Sequence record: PZ379547.1 | From: a phage | DNA length: 38,987 nucleotides | Reading direction: 5' to 3' (one strand) | Part shown: positions 184-38,987 of the stretch, in pieces | Numbering within the stretch: position 1 is the first letter of the stretch | Layout of the letters: each line of letters begins with the position of its first letter | Translations under genes and position numbers: made by a program | Notes under the pieces: model-generated | What the model saw: the letters and a program-made list of their open reading frames with translations, nothing else | Databases searched by the model: none | What the model was told of the DNA's origin: nothing

Positions 184-206
184 ACTTAACTATCACTATA
201 GGGAAG
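184..206 (+). promoter_or_regulatory. Phage RNAP promoter (position equivalent to T7 phiOR, upstream of gene 19.5)
   Basis: cttaactatcactatagggaaga matches the repeated promoter consensus; +1 G at 201. Confidence 0.8.
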
Positions 207-1349: not shown

Positions 1350-1379
1350 TTGACAAGATGTACCGACTTAAAGTAGTAT
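1350..1379 (+). promoter_or_regulatory. Candidate host sigma70 early promoter (T7 A2-like)
   Basis: TTGACA (1350-1355), 18-nt spacer, TAGTAT (1374-1379), followed by gtaccaca as recalled downstream of the T7 A2 -10; lies between the predicted genome end and the first early gene. Confidence 0.4.
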
Positions 1380-2797: not shown

Positions 2798-3025
2798 ATG
2801 AACACAATCACTGGTGCCATAACCAAAGGTTTTCGAGCAATTTTCGGTGAAACGCAAGAAGTATGCACCAATCATAAATTCGTACTTTCTTGCGTAGCAG
2901 GTGACGAGTTTGACGGGTTCGATAAACTGGTGGTTTGCGACCATTGCGGACAAGAGGCTATCCAACACTCAAACGGTAAATTTGAATTAATAGACGATAG
3001 CCTTACAGAAGGAGACGGCGAGTAA
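2798..3025 (+). CDS. Hypothetical early protein with four Cys (possible zinc ribbon), 75 aa
   Basis: ORF with GAGAGGGA SD; Cys at C-x8-C ... C-x2-C (CTNHKFVLSC ... CDHC). Confidence 0.55.
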   Translation: MNTITGAITKGFRAIFGETQEVCTNHKFVLSCVAGDEFDGFDKLVVCDHCGQEAIQHSNGKFELIDDSLTEGDGE

Positions 3026-3099
3026 CCTAAATAAACAGGAGAGAACCAAATCATAGCTTGACCATAACACTGACGTGATGGTACTGAGTGATAGACGAG

Positions 3100-3123
3100 A
3101 GGTCATCGACTGATAGGTGGCCT
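3100..3123 (+). promoter_or_regulatory. Predicted RNase III-type hairpin (site D)
   Basis: AGGUCAU (3100-3106) pairs with GUGGCCU (3117-3123) via G-U wobbles. Confidence 0.4.
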
Positions 3124-3157
3124 CAAAGATTACCACTTACATTGATAGGAGTTAACT

Positions 3158-3262
3158 ATGAGCACTGCAATCATCTGGACTATCTCAGGCTTCGTAGCGT
3201 GGGGAATGTTTACTCTAGTCTGCAAACTACCGGTCCTTACTCAACTGTTATGGGGCTTATGA
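3158..3262 (+). CDS. Small hydrophobic peptide (34 aa), candidate early membrane protein
   Basis: ATG 3158 with AGGAG 6 nt upstream; MSTAIIWTISGFVAWGMFTLVCKLPVLTQLLWGL; stop TGA 3260-3262 overlaps next ATG (ATGA). Confidence 0.45.
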   Translation: MSTAIIWTISGFVAWGMFTLVCKLPVLTQLLWGL

Positions 3263-3462
3263 CTATGAGTATCGCACTATTGATAGCCATAGGCTATGGA
3301 CTTATCGCCTACGTGCTGGTGAGAGACATCAACAAAGCGCGTAAAGTCTACAAATTCAAATATGTACGTCTGGGTAGCTGGACTGTACGTCAACCTAACG
3401 GACGATTCATGCGCAACTTAGCGAACGTCTGGGATATAGCAACTCTTGGGAGCAAACTGTAA
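3259..3462 (+). CDS. Small membrane protein (67 aa; one predicted TM helix)
   Basis: ATG 3259 coupled to upstream stop; MTMSIALLIAIGYGLIAYVLV hydrophobic segment; the track ORF 3088..3462 starts at GTG inside hairpin D, so the shorter start is preferred. Confidence 0.45.
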   Translation: MTMSIALLIAIGYGLIAYVLVRDINKARKVYKFKYVRLGSWTVRQPNGRFMRNLANVWDIATLGSKL

Positions 3463-3788
3463 TGAACAAGTCATACGGGATTAATCTGGTACACTCTATG
3501 GACGCAGAAATGAACATGTTAAGCCTACTGGCTACCGGGTATCGTCACGGAACGTCAAGTCACACCGCACGTCAACAGCAGGAGCGGGACCGTGTACTAC
3601 AGGCGCGACTCCGGGCAGAGGGCCATAAGTCCGAACTGATGTGTCTGGCGTATGGTGGACGACCAATCACCGACGATGGTAAACTTTTAGTCTCAGGCTG
3701 GAAGGCGATAGACCAACGGTCAACCATCAAGCACACGACCAAAGGTGACTTCAGTCATCTCCACGCTAACCCGCTGATATGCAAGTAA
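3462..3788 (+). CDS. Hypothetical early protein (108 aa)
   Basis: ORF in track; ATG overlaps upstream TAA (TAATG); last gene before the RNA polymerase; not similar to the T7 0.7 kinase. Confidence 0.5.
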   Translation: MNKSYGINLVHSMDAEMNMLSLLATGYRHGTSSHTARQQQERDRVLQARLRAEGHKSELMCLAYGGRPITDDGKLLVSGWKAIDQRSTIKHTTKGDFSHLHANPLICK

Positions 3789-3793
3789 TTCTG

Positions 3794-3816
3794 ACTTAAC
3801 TATCACTATAGGACTC
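3794..3816 (+). promoter_or_regulatory. Phage RNAP promoter directly upstream of the RNA polymerase gene
   Basis: cttaactatcactataggactca matches the promoter consensus; +1 G at 3811, 75 nt before the gene 1 ATG. Confidence 0.7.
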
Positions 3817-3885
3817 AAGGTCTAAGACTCCAAGTGAAAGACCAAAGAGACTTTAAGTGAAAGACTAATAACAAGGACTTTAAGT

Positions 3886-6567
3886 ATGAGCGTCATCTCT
3901 ATTGACAAGCACGACTTCTCTGATGTGTCGAACGCCATTGAGCCGTTTAACCTGCTGGCTGACCACTACGGGCAAGACCTTGCAGTCAAACAGCTTCAGC
4001 TTGAGCATGAGGCATATACAGAAGGCGAGCGACGTTTCATCAAGAACCTTGAGCGGCAGACTGAGCGCGGGGAACTGGCAGACAATCAGGTCGCCAAGCC
4101 TTTGATGCAGACTCTGGTCCCTAAGATTGCGCAAGCCGTCAGGGAGTGGCACGAAGGCCTAGACGGGAAGCTGTCAACCTCGCGTCCTAGCGTAGCGTTC
4201 ACCATGTTGAGCACTGAAGAGAAGGCCGTAAAGGACCGCTCTATGCGCATCTCCTGTGAGTCCGCTGCGGTTATCATACTGAAGGTCGTACTCTCCAAGC
4301 TGGTCAAGCCTGAAGGGATACCGATTACACCGATGGCCTCCGCGATAGGTCGCACACTTGAGGACGAAATCCGCTTCGGTCGCATCCGTGACAAAGAGAA
4401 GGAGCACTTCAAGAAGGCGATAGCTGATAACCTGAACAAGCGAGCTGGGGCATCCTACAAGAAAGCCTACATGCAAGCGGTCGAGGCGTCCATGCTGGAG
4501 CAAGGCCAACTGGAAGATGCATGGGGTACTTGGAGTCCTACAGAGGCTGTACACGTTGGCATCAAGATGCTCGAGATTGTCATCCAGTCAACACAACTGG
4601 TCGAGCTTAAGCGGTACGGTGCTGGTAATGCAGCGGCTGACGTAGAGATGGTCCACCTGTCAGACTTCTGGGTCAAGAAGATGGCACAACGAGGATTCAG
4701 CCTTGCGGGTATCGCTCCAGTCTACCAGCCTTGCGTCGTTCCACCTAAGCCGTGGACTGGTGTCGTAGGTGGTGGGTACTGGGCCAAAGGTCGCAGACCG
4801 TTACCATTGATTCGCTTAGGGTCTAAGTCTGCGGTAGCACGTTATGAAGACGTATACATGCCTGAAGTCTATGACGCTGTGAACATCATTCAGAATACAC
4901 CTTGGAAAGTTAACAAGAAGGTATTGGACGTGGTGAACATGGTCGAGAAGCTGAACAACACGCCTATTAATGACATCCCTCAGATGGAACCGCTGAAGCC
5001 TGAGGACTATGCTGGTGAAACCGAGGAGGAACTCAAGGCATGGAAGAAGGCTGCTGCTGGTATCTATCGCCGCGAGAAGGCCAGACAGTCACGCAGATTG
5101 TCCATGAGTTTCATCGTATCACAGGCCAACAAGTTCTCACAGTTTAAGGCCATCTGGTTCCCGTACAACATGGATTGGCGAGGTCGTGTCTACGCTGTCC
5201 CGATGTTCAACCCTCAGGGTAACGACATGCAGAAGGGGCTCCTGACTCTGGCAGTCGGCAAGCCTATCGGGGCGGATGGTTTCAAATGGCTTAAAGTCCA
5301 CGGTGCAAACTGTGCGGGTGTCGATAAAGTCACCTTCGATGAGCGCATCAAGTGGGTGGAAGACAACCACGAAAACATCATGGCTGCTGCTAAGGCACCG
5401 ATGGATAGTATTGAGTGGTGGGGCAAGTTAGACTCTCCGTTCTGTTTCCTCGCGTTCTGCTTCGAGTATGCTGGCGTAATGCACCACGGCCTGTCTTACT
5501 CCTGCTCGCTGCCGATAGCGTTCGATGGGTCCTGCTCTGGTATTCAGCACTTCAGTGCGATGCTTCGTGACCACATCGGTGGACATGCAGTAAACCTGAC
5601 GCCATCCGGCATGGTACAAGACATCTACCGCATTGTGTCTGACCGCATTGAGGAGGAGCTTAAAGTCCTTCTGATTAACGGTACTGACAACGAGATGGTC
5701 ACTCACGAGGATAAGAAAACTGGTGAGATTACCGAACGTATCAAGCTGGGGACACGAGAGCTGGCCCGTCAGTGGCTGACATACGGTATGTCACGCAAGG
5801 TCACTAAGCGTTCAGTCATGACTCTGGCATACGGGTCGAAAGAGTACGGATTCGCAGACCAAGTTTACGAGGACATCGTGATGCCAGCGATTGACTCAGG
5901 GTCTGGCGCTATGTTCACTGAACCAAGCCAAGCGTCTCGCTTCATGGCAAAGATGATTTGGGAAGCTGTGAGTGTGACAGTAGTTGCTGCGGTTGACGCG
6001 ATGAAGTGGCTTCAAGGTGCTGCCAAGCTGCTGGCTGCTGAGGTGAAGGACAAGAAGACTGGGGAAATCCTGAAGCCTTGCCTTCCGGTACACTGGGTCA
6101 CACCTGATGGGTTCCCGGTCTGGCAGGAATACCGCAAGAAGGATAGCACTCGTCTGAACCTGATGTTCTTAGGGTCCTTCAACCTTCAACCTACGGTCAA
6201 CAAAGGTACGAAGAAAGAGCTGGACAAGCACAAGCAGGAGTCAGGCATTAGCCCTAACTTCGTCCACTCACAAGATGGTAGCCACCTGCGGAAGACTGTA
6301 GTCCACACTCACCGCAAGTATGGCGTGATGTCATTCGCAGTGATTCACGATAGCTTCGGGACCATCCCTGCTGACGCTGAGTATCTGTTCCGTGGTGTCC
6401 GTGAGACGATGGTCGAGACATACCGCGATAACGATGTGCTGCTTGACTTCTACGAGCAGTTTGAATACCAGCTTCATGAAAGCCAGCGCGACAAGTTGCC
6501 TGAGCTTCCGAAGAAAGGTAAACTGAATATCGAAGACATCTTGTCTTCAGACTTTGCATTCGCTTAA
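3886..6567 (+). CDS. gp1: Single-subunit DNA-directed RNA polymerase (T7 gene 1 homolog), 893 aa
   Basis: DGSCSGIQHFSAMLRD, RSVMTLAYGSKEYGF, VIHDSFGTIPADA and C-terminal ...SDFAFA match recalled T7 RNAP motifs. Confidence 0.97.
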   Translation: MSVISIDKHDFSDVSNAIEPFNLLADHYGQDLAVKQLQLEHEAYTEGERRFIKNLERQTERGELADNQVAKPLMQTLVPKIAQAVREWHEGLDGKLSTSRPSVAFTMLSTEEKAVKDRSMRISCESAAVIILKVVLSKLVKPEGIPITPMASAIGRTLEDEIRFGRIRDKEKEHFKKAIADNLNKRAGASYKKAYMQAVEASMLEQGQLEDAWGTWSPTEAVHVGIKMLEIVIQSTQLVELKRYGAGNAAADVEMVHLSDFWVKKMAQRGFSLAGIAPVYQPCVVPPKPWTGVVGGGYWAKGRRPLPLIRLGSKSAVARYEDVYMPEVYDAVNIIQNTPWKVNKKVLDVVNMVEKLNNTPINDIPQMEPLKPEDYAGETEEELKAWKKAAAGIYRREKARQSRRLSMSFIVSQANKFSQFKAIWFPYNMDWRGRVYAVPMFNPQGNDMQKGLLTLAVGKPIGADGFKWLKVHGANCAGVDKVTFDERIKWVEDNHENIMAAAKAPMDSIEWWGKLDSPFCFLAFCFEYAGVMHHGLSYSCSLPIAFDGSCSGIQHFSAMLRDHIGGHAVNLTPSGMVQDIYRIVSDRIEEELKVLLINGTDNEMVTHEDKKTGEITERIKLGTRELARQWLTYGMSRKVTKRSVMTLAYGSKEYGFADQVYEDIVMPAIDSGSGAMFTEPSQASRFMAKMIWEAVSVTVVAAVDAMKWLQGAAKLLAAEVKDKKTGEILKPCLPVHWVTPDGFPVWQEYRKKDSTRLNLMFLGSFNLQPTVNKGTKKELDKHKQESGISPNFVHSQDGSHLRKTVVHTHRKYGVMSFAVIHDSFGTIPADAEYLFRGVRETMVETYRDNDVLLDFYEQFEYQLHESQRDKLPELPKKGKLNIEDILSSDFAFA

Positions 6568-7113: not shown

Positions 7114-7136
7114 CCTAAACTATCACTATAGGATTA
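7114..7136 (+). promoter_or_regulatory. Phage RNAP promoter (T7 phi1.1-like position)
   Basis: cctaaactatcactataggatta; +1 G at 7131. Confidence 0.85.
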
Positions 7137-7141
7137 GACTC

Positions 7142-7168
7142 AAGGTCATGACTCAAAGTCGTGGCCTT
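7142..7168 (+). promoter_or_regulatory. Predicted RNase III processing hairpin (T7 R1.1-like)
   Basis: AAGGUCAUGAC-ucaaa-GUCGUGGCCUU, 11-bp stem with G-U wobbles; preceded by the conserved agactcaagg motif. Confidence 0.6.
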
Positions 7169-7206
7169 CATGATTAACCCTAACTCATTCAATCAGGAGC
7201 TACACC

Positions 7207-8701: not shown

Positions 8702-8711
8702 CTAAATGTCA

Positions 8712-8744
8712 ACCCAGTGGTCTTCGGACTGCTGGGTTTCTTTG
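8712..8744 (+). terminator. Intrinsic terminator after ligase (T7 TE-like early terminator)
   Basis: ACCCAGUGGUC-UUCG-GACUGCUGGGU (11-bp stem, UUCG loop) followed by UUUCUUUG. Confidence 0.75.
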
Positions 8745-9509: not shown

Positions 9510-9591
9510 GTGGTGCGAGCGTAAATTTGAGGAGACAGGTAACGTCGATTACCTTCAGCTCTACAACTTATGGAAGGAGCGTGGTCTATGA
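9496..9591 (+). CDS. Small ORF (31 aa), T7 gene 1.8-like position
   Basis: ATG 9496 overlaps the end of the upstream gene; stop TGA 9589-9591 overlaps the gene 2 ATG (ATGA). Confidence 0.3.
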
Positions 9592-9746
9592 CTGACGTAG
9601 AGAAGAAATACATCGTGGAGCTTGAGGGTCTCGTTCAGTCCTTCGAGGTTCCGGTGTACGCAAAGTCTCTTGAAGAGGCTACCATGAAGTCCCAAGAGTA
9701 TGAGGACGCTGGGTTTATGGTCGGACGGATTCGTCCTGAGACCTAA
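9588..9746 (+). CDS. gp2: Host RNA polymerase inhibitor Gp2 (52 aa)
   Basis: Below the track cut-off; [14 protein letters not shown]...[10 protein letters not shown] matches recalled T7 Gp2 (SFEVPIYAETLDEA...AGFEVTRVRP); AAGGAG SD. Confidence 0.8.
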
Positions 9747-9804: not shown

Positions 9805-10497
9805 ATGGCTAAAGAGCAATTGAAGACTTTCACCACTCCGGTAGCTGGTATCGTTGAGCCTTACGCATGGCTGAACAAAGCAGACACCAAGTTTAACGAG
9901 CGTGGTGAGCATAAGGTTAACCTGACGTTCGACCTGAGCGACCAGAAGGTCCGTAAGATGATTGATGTCTTACAGAAGATTCACGACGATGCGTATGCGA
10001 AAGCACTCGCAGACCACGAGAAGAACCCACCTCAGGTTCAGCGTGGCAAGAAGCCTATTGAACCACGTGAAGGCGACATGCCGTGGATTGAGAATGGTGA
10101 CGGTACTGTTACCCTTAAGTTTAAATGCTTTGCGTCTTACCTGAAAGACGGCAAGTCCGAGCCTATCGTATTACGGTTCTACGACACCGATGCTAAACTC
10201 ATCCGTGACGTCCCGAATATCTGCGCTGGGTCTAAGATGAAGGTCAAGTTTAAAGTCCTGCCGTTCAAGTGGAACGCTGCGACTGGTGCAAGCGTTAAGC
10301 TCCAGCTTGAGTCCTGCCTTCTGGTAGAACTGAAGGAGTGGAAAGGCGATGGTGGTGATGGTGGCTGGGGTGATGATGAAGACCTTGGTACTGGCTACAA
10401 AGCGCCAACCGATGGTGACTTCGGTGACGATGACTTCGGTGACGATGGTTCCGAAGGTGGTGACGACTCCAACTCTGGTGGCGATTACGACTTCTAA
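9805..10497 (+). CDS. gp2.5: Single-stranded DNA-binding protein (T7 gene 2.5 homolog), 230 aa
   Basis: EPYAWLNK, NPPQVQRGKKPIEPREGDMPW, GASVKLQLESCLLVEL and acidic Gly/Asp tail ending in F match recalled T7 gp2.5. Confidence 0.95.
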   Translation: MAKEQLKTFTTPVAGIVEPYAWLNKADTKFNERGEHKVNLTFDLSDQKVRKMIDVLQKIHDDAYAKALADHEKNPPQVQRGKKPIEPREGDMPWIENGDGTVTLKFKCFASYLKDGKSEPIVLRFYDTDAKLIRDVPNICAGSKMKVKFKVLPFKWNAATGASVKLQLESCLLVELKEWKGDGGDGGWGDDEDLGTGYKAPTDGDFGDDDFGDDGSEGGDDSNSGGDYDF

Positions 10498-10946
10498 TGG
10501 CTACAATAGAAAGCCTCAAGCAGCGACTCAGGGTTTCGGGTAGCTGCTGGCTTTTCACTGGCTGCGTTAACAACAATGGCTACGGTCAGATTAGGCATAA
10601 TGGGAAAACCATGCTTGCCCATCGTGTAGCCTACGAGCTGACTACAGGTGAAGAACCAAATGGTGTTCTACTACACACTTGTGACACTCCACTATGTTGT
10701 AACCCTGAGCATCTAACTGTAGGAACCCAAATGGATAACCTTCAGGACATGCGTAACAAGGGGCGCGGTGTAAACCCTCCTCATGTTCCGGGAGAGAAGT
10801 GCGGTATGTCTAAACTTACTGATACTAAAGTCAAGGAAATTAGGTCTTCTGACCTTACCCAGCGACAGCTCGCCACAATCTACGGAGTGTCTCAGCCAAC
10901 AATAGGTAAGATACTAAGGAGAGAAACATGGCGACACGTAGTATAA
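10497..10946 (+). CDS. HNH homing endonuclease with C-terminal helix-turn-helix (149 aa)
   Basis: CWLFTGCVNNNGYGQIRHNGKTMLAHRVAYEL ... HTCDTPLCCNPEHL (HNH_3-type) plus ...LATIYGVSQPTIGKILR; inserted between SSB and endonuclease I. Confidence 0.85.
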   Translation: MATIESLKQRLRVSGSCWLFTGCVNNNGYGQIRHNGKTMLAHRVAYELTTGEEPNGVLLHTCDTPLCCNPEHLTVGTQMDNLQDMRNKGRGVNPPHVPGEKCGMSKLTDTKVKEIRSSDLTQRQLATIYGVSQPTIGKILRRETWRHVV

Positions 10947-11383: not shown

Positions 11384-11604
11384 CTCAAGAAGTTAAGGTC
11401 GTTCGTAAGCGTCTGACCATTGATAAAATCCCGGTAGGCTATGCGTTTATCGTCCACGGTAAGCCGGGTGAAGTGTACGTGAAGATTAGTAACTCTCACG
11501 TCTTCAACCATAAGTTGCTCCAGATGCACACCACGGATGCTAACCGCTTCCAACGTCATCTGAACCTCGTAGCTGTAGAGCTGGTGGTGTATGATGGTGA
11601 GTAA
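11380..11604 (+). CDS. Hypothetical protein (74 aa) between endonuclease I and lysozyme
   Basis: ATGA overlap with gene 3 stop; AAGGAG SD 7 nt upstream; no recognisable motif. Confidence 0.5.
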   Translation: MTQEVKVVRKRLTIDKIPVGYAFIVHGKPGEVYVKISNSHVFNHKLLQMHTTDANRFQRHLNLVAVELVVYDGE

Positions 11605-12052
11605 GGTGCAATTCAACCCACGGTCCCGGACTGACGCTATCTTCGTTCACTGTTCGGCTACCAAGCCAGATATGGACATCGGGGTAGAGACCATCCGTAT
11701 GTGGCACAAGCAGCAAGGATGGCTGGACGTAGGCTACCACTTTATCATCAAACGTGATGGCACTGTGGAAGAGGGTCGCCCGGTCAATGTCGTAGGGTCA
11801 CACGTTAAGGACTGGAACTCCAAGTCCGTAGGCGTCTGCCTTGTAGGTGGAATTGACGCTAAGGGCAAGTTTGAAGCTAACTTCACTCCGGCCCAGATGA
11901 ACTCACTGCGCAACAAGCTGGCTGACCTGAAGGTCCTGTATCCTCAGGCAGAAATCAAAGCACACCATGACGTAGCACCTAAGGCGTGTCCAAGTTTTGA
12001 CTTGCAACGCTGGCTGTCTACCAATGAACTGGTCACTTCCGACCGTGGTTAA
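11591..12052 (+). CDS. gp3.5: Lysozyme / N-acetylmuramoyl-L-alanine amidase (T7 gene 3.5 homolog), 153 aa
   Basis: TDAIFVHCSATKP, WLDVGYHFIIKRDGTVEEGR, VGVCLVGGID, FTPAQM, HHDVAPKACPSFDL, ELVTSDRG match recalled T7 lysozyme. Confidence 0.95.
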   Translation: MMVSKVQFNPRSRTDAIFVHCSATKPDMDIGVETIRMWHKQQGWLDVGYHFIIKRDGTVEEGRPVNVVGSHVKDWNSKSVGVCLVGGIDAKGKFEANFTPAQMNSLRNKLADLKVLYPQAEIKAHHDVAPKACPSFDLQRWLSTNELVTSDRG

Positions 12053-21824: not shown

Positions 21825-21847
21825 ACTAAACTATCACTATAGGGAGA
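21825..21847 (+). promoter_or_regulatory. Phage RNAP promoter upstream of capsid gene (T7 phi10-like), with 5' leader hairpin
   Basis: actaaactatcactatagggaga; +1 G at 21842; leader GGGAGACC ... GGUUUCCC can pair, like the T7 phi10 leader. Confidence 0.9.
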
Positions 21848-26487: not shown

Positions 26488-26537
26488 AAGGGCCTATAGA
26501 TTTACCTTAACTATCACTATAGGGACTATAGGCCCTT
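26488..26537 (+). repeat. Perfect 12-bp inverted repeat (aagggcctatag / ctataggccctt) bracketing the gene 13 promoter
   Basis: Arms at 26488-26499 and 26526-26537, read directly. Confidence 0.8.
26505..26527 (+). promoter_or_regulatory. Phage RNAP promoter (T7 phi13-like position)
   Basis: ccttaactatcactatagggact; +1 G at 26522. Confidence 0.85.
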
Positions 26538-37189: not shown

Positions 37190-38949
37190 GTAAAGACTTA
37201 GTGGCGCGTCAGGCGCTAATGACTGCACGTATGAAGTCAGACTTCGTGTTCTTCCTGTTCGTCCTGTGGAAAGCTCTGTCGCTCCCAGTCCCTACTCGCT
37301 GTCAGATTGACATGGCGAAGAAACTATCGGCTGGGGACAACAGGCGCTTCATCCTACAAGCGTTCCGTGGTATAGGGAAGTCCTTCATTACGTGTGCCTT
37401 CGTTGTCTGGAAGCTATGGAACAACCCAGACTTGAAGTTCATGATTGTGTCGGCCTCAAAGGAACGAGCCGATGCTAACTCCATCTTCATCAAGCGAATC
37501 ATCGACCTCATGCCTCAGCTTCAGGAACTCAAACCTAAGCAGGGTCAGCGAGATGCGGTTATCAGCTTCGACGTTGGACCGGCTAAGCCAGACCACTCAC
37601 CTTCGGTTAAGTCCGTTGGTATCACTGGTCAGTTGACTGGTAGTCGTGCTGACATCCTGATTGCCGATGACGTGGAGGTTCCGAACAACTCAGCGACTCA
37701 GGCTGCACGAGACCGTCTATCAGAGCTTGTGAAAGAGTTCGACGCTATCCTGAAGCCGGGAGGTACGATCATCTATCTGGGTACTCCTCAGAACGAGATG
37801 ACACTGTATCGTGAGCTGGAAGGTCGTGGGTACACCACTACTATCTGGCCCGCTCGTTATCCACGCGACAGGAAGGACTGGCAGTCTTACGGTGACCGTC
37901 TGGCACCGATGCTTCAGGCAGAGCTTGAAGAGGACCCTGAGTCCTTCTACTGGCGTCCGACTGATGAAGTACGCTTCGATGATACGGACCTGAAGGAGCG
38001 TGAGCTGTCCTACGGTAAAGCTGGCTTCGCTCTACAGTTCATGCTTAACCCGAACCTGAGTGATGCTGAGAAGTATCCTCTTAAGCTCCGTGACCTTATC
38101 GTAGCCGACTTGGACCCAGCGTCCAGCCCAATGGTCTACCAATGGTTGCCAAACCCTCAGAACAAGCGTGAGGACGTTCCTAACGTGGGACTCATGGGTG
38201 ACTCGTACCACACGTATCAGACTGTAGGTTCTGCCTTCAGCTCATACACCCAGAAGATTCTGGTCATTGACCCTAGTGGTCGTGGTAAGGATGAAACTGG
38301 CTATGCGGTACTGTACCAGCTCAACGGCTACATCTTCGCTATGGAAGTTGGTGGTATGCGTGGTGGCTATGAAGACTCTACGCTGGAAGCATTGGCTAAG
38401 ATTGGTCGTAAGTGGAAGGTCAACGAATACGTCATTGAGGGTAACTTCGGCGATGGTATGTACCTTGAGCTATTCAAGCCTGTAGCGGCCCGTATTCATC
38501 CTGCTGCTGTAACTGAAGTGAAGAGTAAGGGTCAGAAGGAACTCCGCATCTGTGACGTTCTGGAGCCTATCATGGGGTCTCACCGACTTATCGTTAACGC
38601 TGCTGCTATCGTCCAAGACTACCAGACAGCCTCTGACAAGGATGGCGTGCGTAACCCTATCTACTCTCTCTTCTATCAGATGACCCGTATCTCTCGTGAA
38701 CGTGGAGCCTTGGCACACGATGACCGACTTGATGCGCTGGCTATCGGTGTACAGTTCTTCGTTGAGTCTATGGCGAAGGATGCCAACAAAGGCGAACGTG
38801 AAGTCACTGAGGAGTGGCTGGAGGAACAGATGGAGAACCCACGGAAAGGCTTCGAGTCCATCCACACTGAGTTCTGGGACAATGGGGTCCGGGTAACTCA
38901 CGATACTGACGACGAGCTTGGACTAGGGTCCTACGTTACGTTCCACTAG
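37186..38949 (+). CDS. gp19: Terminase large subunit (T7 gene 19 homolog), 587 aa, probable TTG start
   Basis: [111 protein letters not shown] match recalled T7 gp19; AAGGAGG 8 nt before TTG 37186. Confidence 0.96.
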
Positions 38950-38987
38950 CTGAATGAATAACTATAGGCGAAAACTGAATTAATAAG
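38861..38987 (+). repeat. Window-end duplication, copy 2 (identical to 1-127)
   Basis: Exact identity with window start, read directly. Confidence 0.95.

Follow-up and report, generated by a model that had tools for sequence, protein, structure and literature searches.

The idea that a phage RNA polymerase may transcribe its own gene has been put forward for natural as well as engineered systems. In the engineered T7 autogene, the T7 polymerase gene is under the control of a T7 promoter; it needs a trigger and then amplifies autocatalytically (PMC1500874). The Pseudomonas phage LUZ100 has a phage-specific promoter, phi1, immediately before its polymerase gene, and a mapped transcript start coincides with phi1. 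It was proposed that read-through by the host polymerase provides the trigger and that self-amplification follows; in the same proposal, repression of phi1 by a MarR-like protein belongs to the lysis/lysogeny decision (PMC10134795). For the Vibrio phage phiA318, the authors predicted a cognate promoter ahead of the polymerase gene and interpreted it in terms of autoregulation (PMC4099482).

Closer relatives of the genome studied here already carry the annotation of such a site. In the Kayfunavirus CR44b (NC_023576), whose segment is about 98% identical to that of PZ379547.1, the orthologous 23-bp site is annotated as "predicted promoter" at 1814-1836, and gene 1 begins at 1906, 69 nt after the end of the site. 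In CR8 (genus Caroctavirus, HG818824), the corresponding site is annotated as a predicted promoter at 3356-3378, with gene 1 at 3460. These promoters before gene 1 go undiscussed in the genome announcement (PMC4038870). In another Kayfunavirus, a repeat CTWAACTATCACTATAGG was reported, with which the promoter consensus of PZ379547.1 agrees, and one copy of this repeat is located at the end of the gene preceding the polymerase gene (PMC13298934).

In the T7 record, the E. coli promoter C (3113) is the only promoter between gene 0.7 and gene 1, and phiOL is located 2.7 kb upstream. The spacer before gene 1 also contains the RNase III site R1. An earlier note on PZ379547.1 had taken T7 gene 1 to be made only from promoters of the host RNA polymerase. 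This holds for the spacer, where promoter C stands alone, but has to be qualified by the presence of phiOL, since T7 gene 1 is thereby not strictly beyond the reach of the T7 polymerase.

Here, we describe the region preceding the polymerase gene in PZ379547.1, the window being the whole stretch of 38,987 nucleotides. The site at 3794-3816 is very probably a working promoter of the phage's own T7-type RNA polymerase, conserved in Kayfunavirus genomes. We discuss its conservation, its relationship with the specificity of the polymerase, a candidate RNA hairpin that overlaps it, and the regulatory circuit in which it may take part.

The genome and the gene 1 locus

PZ379547.1 is a Kayfunavirus (K1F-like) genome and a T7 relative. 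Indeed, many Kayfunavirus (K1F-like) genomes, among them ST1749, LM33_P1, and HC12, match its segment 3000-7000 with 95-97% identity. Bases 1-127 recur exactly at 38861-38987; the record thus corresponds to the whole genome, of about 38.9 kb, in a circular-looking assembly. The length of exactly 127 nt points to an overlap left by the assembler (k = 127) when the contig was circularised, rather than to the true terminal repeat, which measures 182-190 bp in CR44b, CR8, and Ro45lw. Hence, base 1 of PZ379547.1 is probably not a physical genome end.

The features of the locus and of the early region are collected in Table 1. Gene 1 is separated from the preceding early ORF by a spacer of 97 nt. 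The gene 1 region contains no integrase or repressor. A gp0.7 kinase homologue is absent from PZ379547.1, and the 168-aa ORF at 1901-2407 corresponds to an Ocr homologue. In the record of LM33_P1 (LT594300), the Ocr homologue is labelled "phage protein kinase" and gene 1 is split into two CDS, 2925-4892 and 4920-5606; the kinase label and the split are probably annotation or sequencing errors. Gene 1 is likewise in many fragments in OP272493.

Three other observations concern the organization of these genomes. An ORF of 149 aa resembling HNH homing endonucleases (10497-10946) is located between the gp2.5 and gp3 homologues and is likely a mobile insertion. Near the left end, five copies of ACCTACAGTC are found within about 100 nt (1000-1096); other Kayfunavirus loci have similar repeats of this type, and the CR8 record carries a repeat annotation for them. 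Finally, a T7-like contig (L042) carries, at about 200-410 and upstream of the early genes, 11 tandem copies of a 21-nt unit (AGGAACCACTGAG...).

Table 1. Features of PZ379547.1 related to transcription and translation of gene 1
Feature	Position	Strand	Characteristics
phiOL-like promoter, +1 at 201	184..206	+	Only other cognate promoter upstream of gene 1; same as gene 1 site from -17 to +2
Best sigma-70-like early promoter (TTGACA, 18 nt, TAGTAT)	1350..1379	+	10/12 consensus matches; candidate host trigger
Upstream early ORF, 108 aa, phrog_7066	3462..3788	+	Function unknown; stop codon 5 nt before promoter
Phage-polymerase promoter before gene 1 (-17 to +6), ACTTAACTATCACTATAGGACTC	3794..3816	+	Predicted; consensus match
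Candidate hairpin of read-through RNA, about 21 bp, irregular	3800..3863	+	Folding, z -2.3
Predicted transcription start, +1 G	3811..3811	+	Register with the T7-group consensus CACTATA/GG
Leader, 75 nt	3811..3885	+	37% G+C vs. 50% for the genome; made of GACTYYAAGT-type words
Imperfect 21-nt direct repeat	3825..3868 (3825-3845, 3848-3868)	+	86% identical; holds both exact AAGTGAAAGAC copies
Shine-Dalgarno sequence AAGGA	3873..3877	+	8 nt before ATG; context AGGACTTTAAGTATG same as T7 gene 1.1
Gene 1, single-subunit RNA polymerase, 893 aa	3886..6567	+	98% identical to K1F gp1, 64% to T7 gp1
phi1.1-like promoter, +1 at 7131	7114..7136	+	Matrix site; next cognate promoter downstream of gene 1, followed by R1.1-like hairpin
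R1.1-like hairpin	7137-7178	+	After the 7131 promoter; z -2.3
Intrinsic terminator-like hairpin after the ligase gene	8711..8738	+	12-bp stem, UUCG loop, then UUUCUUUG; z -5.0
gp2 homologue (T7 gp2: inhibitor of host RNA polymerase)	9570..9746	+	phrog_1307, E 2.6e-23
gp3.5 homologue, amidase (lysozyme)	11591..12052	+	phrog_822, E 7e-81

A promoter for the phage polymerase before gene 1

The core CTATCACTATAGG is present in eight exact copies in PZ379547.1, all of them on the + strand. A weight matrix was built from the exact-core sites, and sites scoring 25 or more were considered as strong. The scan gave 11 strong sites, again all on the + strand, with +1 at 201, 3811, 7131, 8783, 9759, 12305, 18015, 20854, 21842, 26522, and 33798. 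The next best site scores 15 and the best site on the - strand 5.7. The match that the earlier note had pointed out before gene 1 is one of these 11 sites and fully agrees with the phage's own consensus; the core CACTATAGG is exact, with a G at +1. With a leave-one-out matrix made from the other 10 sites, 3794-3816 scores 31.5 bits, as compared to 25-36 for the other promoters and 15.7 for the best non-promoter sequence. No other match to the whole 23-mer ACTTAACTATCACTATAGGACTC is found in PZ379547.1 at up to three mismatches, and none is expected in shuffled sequences.

The site is intergenic, between the stop codon at 3788 and the ATG codon at 3886, and has the same orientation as the surrounding genes. 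The distance of 75 bp given in the earlier note for promoter and start codon proves correct when counted from the predicted start site, G3811, and corresponds to the length of the leader. A transcript starting there would begin with GGACTC, vs. GGGAGA at the promoter with +1 at 21842. The GGA start resembles that of T7 class II promoters, and the promoter is probably of moderate strength. A GGA start in place of GGGAGA suggests a weaker promoter, and the feedback on gene 1 could therefore be small.

The phiOL-like promoter at 201 could already allow the phage polymerase to read through into gene 1. Thus, 3794-3816 is not the only possible route for self-transcription. A conserved 52-aa ORF (387-545; phrog_2193, "gp0.1 of K1F" in the LM33_P1 record) is located downstream of the 201 promoter. 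The candidate host promoter at 1350-1379 is located beyond this ORF, whose expression may thus depend entirely on the phage polymerase. Another particular case is the promoter at 26505-26527, which is directly followed by a second partial core (CACTATAGGGACTATAGG, within 26515-26532), through a tandem duplication of ACTATAGG at the start site.

Conservation of the site and co-evolution with the polymerase

The promoter is conserved in the genus. K1F, which lacks most of the upstream ORF, nevertheless has the identical site (2480-2492), at a distance of 74 nt from gene 1. Using the polymerase as a query, 80 loci were collected from IMG/VR. In all Kayfunavirus-like loci (polymerase identity 87-99%), a cognate promoter is found 75-81 nt before the ATG codon. 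In the Citrobacter phage CR8, where the polymerase is 78% identical, the cognate promoter is located 87 nt before gene 1. A second IMG/VR scan, with a ribosome-site pattern, gave the same 22 contigs and no others. The 141-nt segment made up of promoter and leader is present in 221 phage records, the hosts being Escherichia, Salmonella, Enterobacter, Citrobacter, Shigella, Cronobacter, and Klebsiella. Sequence alignment shows that the core CACTA(T/A)AGG is invariant and that the bases immediately upstream of the promoter vary. The L013/Ro45lw group has an A at position -2 of the gene 1 site (CACTAAAGG), and the list of six promoters given by the authors of Ro45lw omits the gene 1 site, which is this -2 A variant in that phage.

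The specificity of the site was considered by comparing promoter bases -12 to -8 with the specificity loop of the polymerase (T7 residues 746-758). PZ379547.1, K1F, the L013 group, and IME278 have promoters of the type AACTATCACTATAGG, with ACTAT at -12 to -8, and a loop RLNL..FNLQ (N/N). L019 and L045, which are relatives of Ro103C3lw and GW1, share with EcpYZU01 promoters of the type AAACCCTCACT(A/G)TAGG, with ACCCT, and a loop RLDL..FRLQ (D/R). The loop residues of this second type are those of phage T3 at the same positions, and ACCCT is common to T3-type promoters. Finally, CR8 has promoters of the type AAGGAAGGTACACTATAGG, with AGGTA, and yet another loop. In each lineage, the gene 1 site carries the specificity bases of its own lineage, making three promoter types for three loop types.

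Hence, the gene 1 site switches in step with the polymerase, which argues that it is kept for recognition by the phage polymerase; other causes would not predict such switching. We consider this co-evolution of promoter and loop as the strongest evidence for use of the gene 1 site, indirect but good. The reading of 3794-3816 as a phage-polymerase promoter, already made in the earlier note, is thus borne out by its match to the consensus, its intergenic and co-oriented position, its conservation across the genus, and the switch of its specificity with that of the polymerase in three lineages.

Other T7 relatives

The arrangement was also searched for in more distant branches. In T7-like (62-65% polymerase identity), T3-like, and K11-like (59%) loci, no cognate promoter is found within 600 nt upstream of gene 1, and an R1-type hairpin is present in the spacer before the gene. 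Further upstream, the first cognate promoter is reached after 629 nt in one T3-like locus and after 985 nt in one other; the rest have none or have it at more than 1.3 kb. In SP6, no match to the phage's own promoter is found upstream of the polymerase gene. Its absence from the T7, T3, K11, and SP6 types makes the arrangement a trait of the Kayfunavirus and Caroctavirus branch. More distant phages with a similar arrangement are LUZ100 (PMC10134795) and phiA318 (PMC4099482).

The two nearest cases, L043 (T3-like, 629 nt) and L047 (985 nt), correspond to an 11-mer resembling the cognate promoter within the early region. In other lineages, transcription by the phage polymerase may therefore enter gene 1 from further away.

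The leader and the ribosome-binding site

The leader is rich in repeated words. The earlier note had reported a repeated motif, and the repetition is real, even if its extent has to be corrected: the 12-mer taagtgaaagac is present once, and the duplicated word is the 11-mer AAGTGAAAGAC, at 3832 and 3855. In addition, GACTTTAAGT occurs twice in the leader (3849, 3876) and nowhere else in PZ379547.1, for an expected number of 0.07. Of the 20 GACTYYAAGT-like words on the + strand of the genome, four fall within the 75 nt of the leader.

Folding of the 75-nt leader alone gives no significant structure (z +0.68 and -0.28). The two copies of GACUUUAAGU were considered as possible masks of the ribosome site in the shorter, promoter-initiated RNA only. 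This candidate was rejected: in eight phages, the probability that the ribosome-binding region is unpaired is equal in read-through and promoter-initiated mRNAs (0.43-0.65), so that the two are not predicted to be translated differently.

A candidate hairpin overlapping the promoter

In RNA made from upstream promoters, the sequence of the promoter may itself be engaged in a secondary structure. In the predicted hairpin (Table 1), the promoter core contributes UCACU and AGG, whose partners AGUGA and CUU belong to the second repeat of the leader, and the partner of GGUCU is AGACC, in the first repeat. Its z-score equals that of the R1.1-like hairpin that follows the 7131 promoter (-2.3 in both cases) and ranges from -2.1 to -3.9 in relatives. 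The sequence ACTCAAGGTC is common to this hairpin, to the 5' arm of the T7 R1.1 region, and to the hairpin after the 7131 promoter. A perfect 11-bp helix results in the L013 group from three changes, namely T to A at promoter position -2 and, within the 3' arm, the loss of one base and the replacement of an A by a U.

EcpYZU01 and CR8 have the promoter and do not keep the hairpin. RNAalifold applied to 12 sequences gives a weak consensus, with no compensated pair and no covariation, and a search of Rfam with the segment 3500-4200, at a permissive threshold, gives no match.

These data leave room for a tentative idea, which we regard as possible though doubtful, in which the promoter would have a dual use: it would be a start site as DNA and, as RNA, one strand of the lower stem of an RNase III-type hairpin of roughly 64 nt that replaces T7 R1. 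With about the same reserve, the partners of the core in RNA from upstream promoters would be the AAGTGA and CTTTAAG words that recur in the leader. The leader repeats would be explained if the promoter did overlap an RNase III-type site. In that case, host-made and phage-made gene 1 mRNAs would acquire 5' ends that resemble each other, and neither the promoter nor the leader could evolve independently of the other, a constraint at which the helix-lengthening changes in the L013 group hint.

Alternative roles for the conserved site

Three other explanations for the conservation of 3794-3816 have to be weighed against a promoter selected for transcription of gene 1. The promoter may be functional but selected for something other than amplification of the polymerase, self-transcription of gene 1 being a by-product. 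We find this improbable, and hold the same opinion of the roles that it would imply: transcription into genes 1.05-1.3 and beyond, pulling in or opening of the DNA, or priming of replication in the manner of T7 phi1.1A/B and phiOL. Host terminators are read through by T7-type polymerases, so that starts at 3811 would also transcribe everything downstream, and the next promoter is 3.3 kb away, at 7131. T7 origin regions are A+T-rich, and the leader, with its 37% G+C, is similar in this respect. However, the site stays at 75-87 nt from the ATG codon of gene 1 across lineages in which the upstream genes differ or are deleted, as in K1F, where it has outlived most of the upstream ORF. Moreover, the leader contains a conserved ribosome-binding context for gene 1, and the small ORFs after gene 1 are reached by early transcripts anyway.

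The sequence could also be kept mainly as RNA, as the 5' arm of a processing hairpin analogous to T7 R1 in the early host-made transcript, with promoter likeness being secondary. The pairing of UCACU/AGG with AGUGA/CUU (z -2.1 to -3.9), the perfect 11-bp helix reached in the L013 group through three changes that include -2 T to A in the promoter, the presence of ACTCAAGGTC in the 5' arm of T7 R1.1 and in the hairpin after the 7131 promoter, and the R1-type hairpin at the same position in T7-like phages all speak for a role as RNA. Nevertheless, bases -12 to -8 change together with the polymerase (ACTAT, ACCCT, AGGTA), most of these bases being at the margin of the helix or beyond it. EcpYZU01 and CR8 are without the hairpin yet have the promoter, neither covariation by RNAalifold nor a match in Rfam is found, and the two roles can coexist; an RNA function as the main cause of conservation is thus very unlikely. 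Still less credible is a chance or vestigial promoter-like sequence devoid of function. Such matches are not expected by chance (0 expected), the core is invariant across the genus while neighboring bases vary, and the re-tuning of the site to the polymerase of each lineage contradicts this view. A promoter recognized by the phage polymerase and directed at gene 1 is the most likely explanation.

A putative circuit for gene 1 expression

That transcription starts at 3811 in vivo, how strong the promoter is, the feedback on gene 1, and its damping are all inferred from the sequence. In the circuit that would result, the host RNA polymerase would start at sigma-70 early promoters of the left end, the candidate being that at 1350-1379. 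It would then read through the early genes and gene 1 up to the terminator after the ligase gene, giving the first molecules of phage polymerase. The new polymerase would also start at G3811 and produce a gene 1 mRNA with a 75-nt leader, continuing into the downstream genes. Gene 1 would thereby enter the regulon of its own polymerase, creating a positive feedback, and synthesis of the polymerase could persist once the gp2 homologue has shut off the host enzyme. Given the class II-like start GGACTC, the loop would probably be moderate, and later damped by the gp3.5 amidase homologue.

Several features of the locus bear on these steps. Matches to the sigma-70-like consensus are no commoner in PZ379547.1 than in shuffled sequence, and the scan finds no sigma-70 promoter in the spacer before gene 1 comparable to T7 promoter C. 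The hairpin at 8711-8738 is, by its position, the likely counterpart of the T7 early terminator TE. In a simple terminator scan, 8711-8738 was listed for the opposite strand alone. From the early promoter through 3794-3816 to gene 1, the prediction gives no terminator-like site. Since none separates +1 from gene 1, polymerase molecules that initiate at 3811 would go on to transcribe the gene encoding them, which amounts to positive feedback. The positive autoregulation of gene 1 suggested in the earlier note is supported to this extent, and positive feedback on gene 1 is the best reading.

T7 lysozyme limits class II promoters. As GGACTC resembles the start of these promoters, the loop is probably moderate and damped by the gp3.5 homologue in the way of class II promoters in T7; a role for this homologue in the control of the polymerase would follow from analogy with T7. 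A class II pause or termination signal inside gene 1 was also considered and rejected. The sequence ATCTGTT at 6383 is without a T-run, and its two copies in 39 kb are about what chance would give.

Comparison with known systems

The gene 1 promoter is already known as a sequence feature, in CR44b and CR8, and as an idea, in phiA318 and LUZ100. An earlier explicit statement on this promoter for K1F may exist. Because the site is annotated in relatives and the idea has been published for other phages, the gain is confirmation rather than discovery. What is added here is the argument from co-evolution, the restriction of the arrangement to one branch of the T7 relatives, and the possible overlap with an RNA processing hairpin. 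More generally, the textbook T7 rule, according to which the polymerase gene is a purely host-transcribed early gene, would fail throughout a genus that comprises common coliphages as well as phages of Salmonella. This is relevant to models of infection timing in T7-like phages and to engineering with K1F-type polymerase/promoter pairs.

The features of CR44b and CR8 are the closest counterparts of the site. They are sequence predictions in database records that state no regulatory consequence; the CR8 feature has the same position as the site in PZ379547.1 but consists of CR8's own promoter sequence. LUZ100 also has a phage-specific promoter directly upstream of its polymerase gene. However, it is a distant relative with temperate features, and its start was mapped, whereas that of PZ379547.1 is predicted from the sequence. 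In phiA318, the promoter precedes the kinase and polymerase genes together; in PZ379547.1, which has no kinase gene, it directly precedes gene 1.

T7 shares the general plan of PZ379547.1, in which candidate sigma-70 early promoters at the left end precede gene 1, and a promoter with an R1.1-type hairpin behind it, the ligase gene, a putative early terminator, and homologues of gp2 and gp3.5 come after it. It differs in the spacer before gene 1, which holds the weak E. coli promoter C and no T7 promoter, the nearest one upstream being phiOL, at 2.7 kb. Finally, the T7 autogene has the same wiring as gene 1 of PZ379547.1, a cognate promoter driving the polymerase gene. The autogene is synthetic and usually has a strong class III-type promoter, whereas the arrangement in PZ379547.1 occurs naturally; its promoter has a class II-like start, and the gp3.5 homologue probably acts as an inbuilt brake. 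Such a natural and tolerated autogene, with its class II-like promoter, could serve as a design template.
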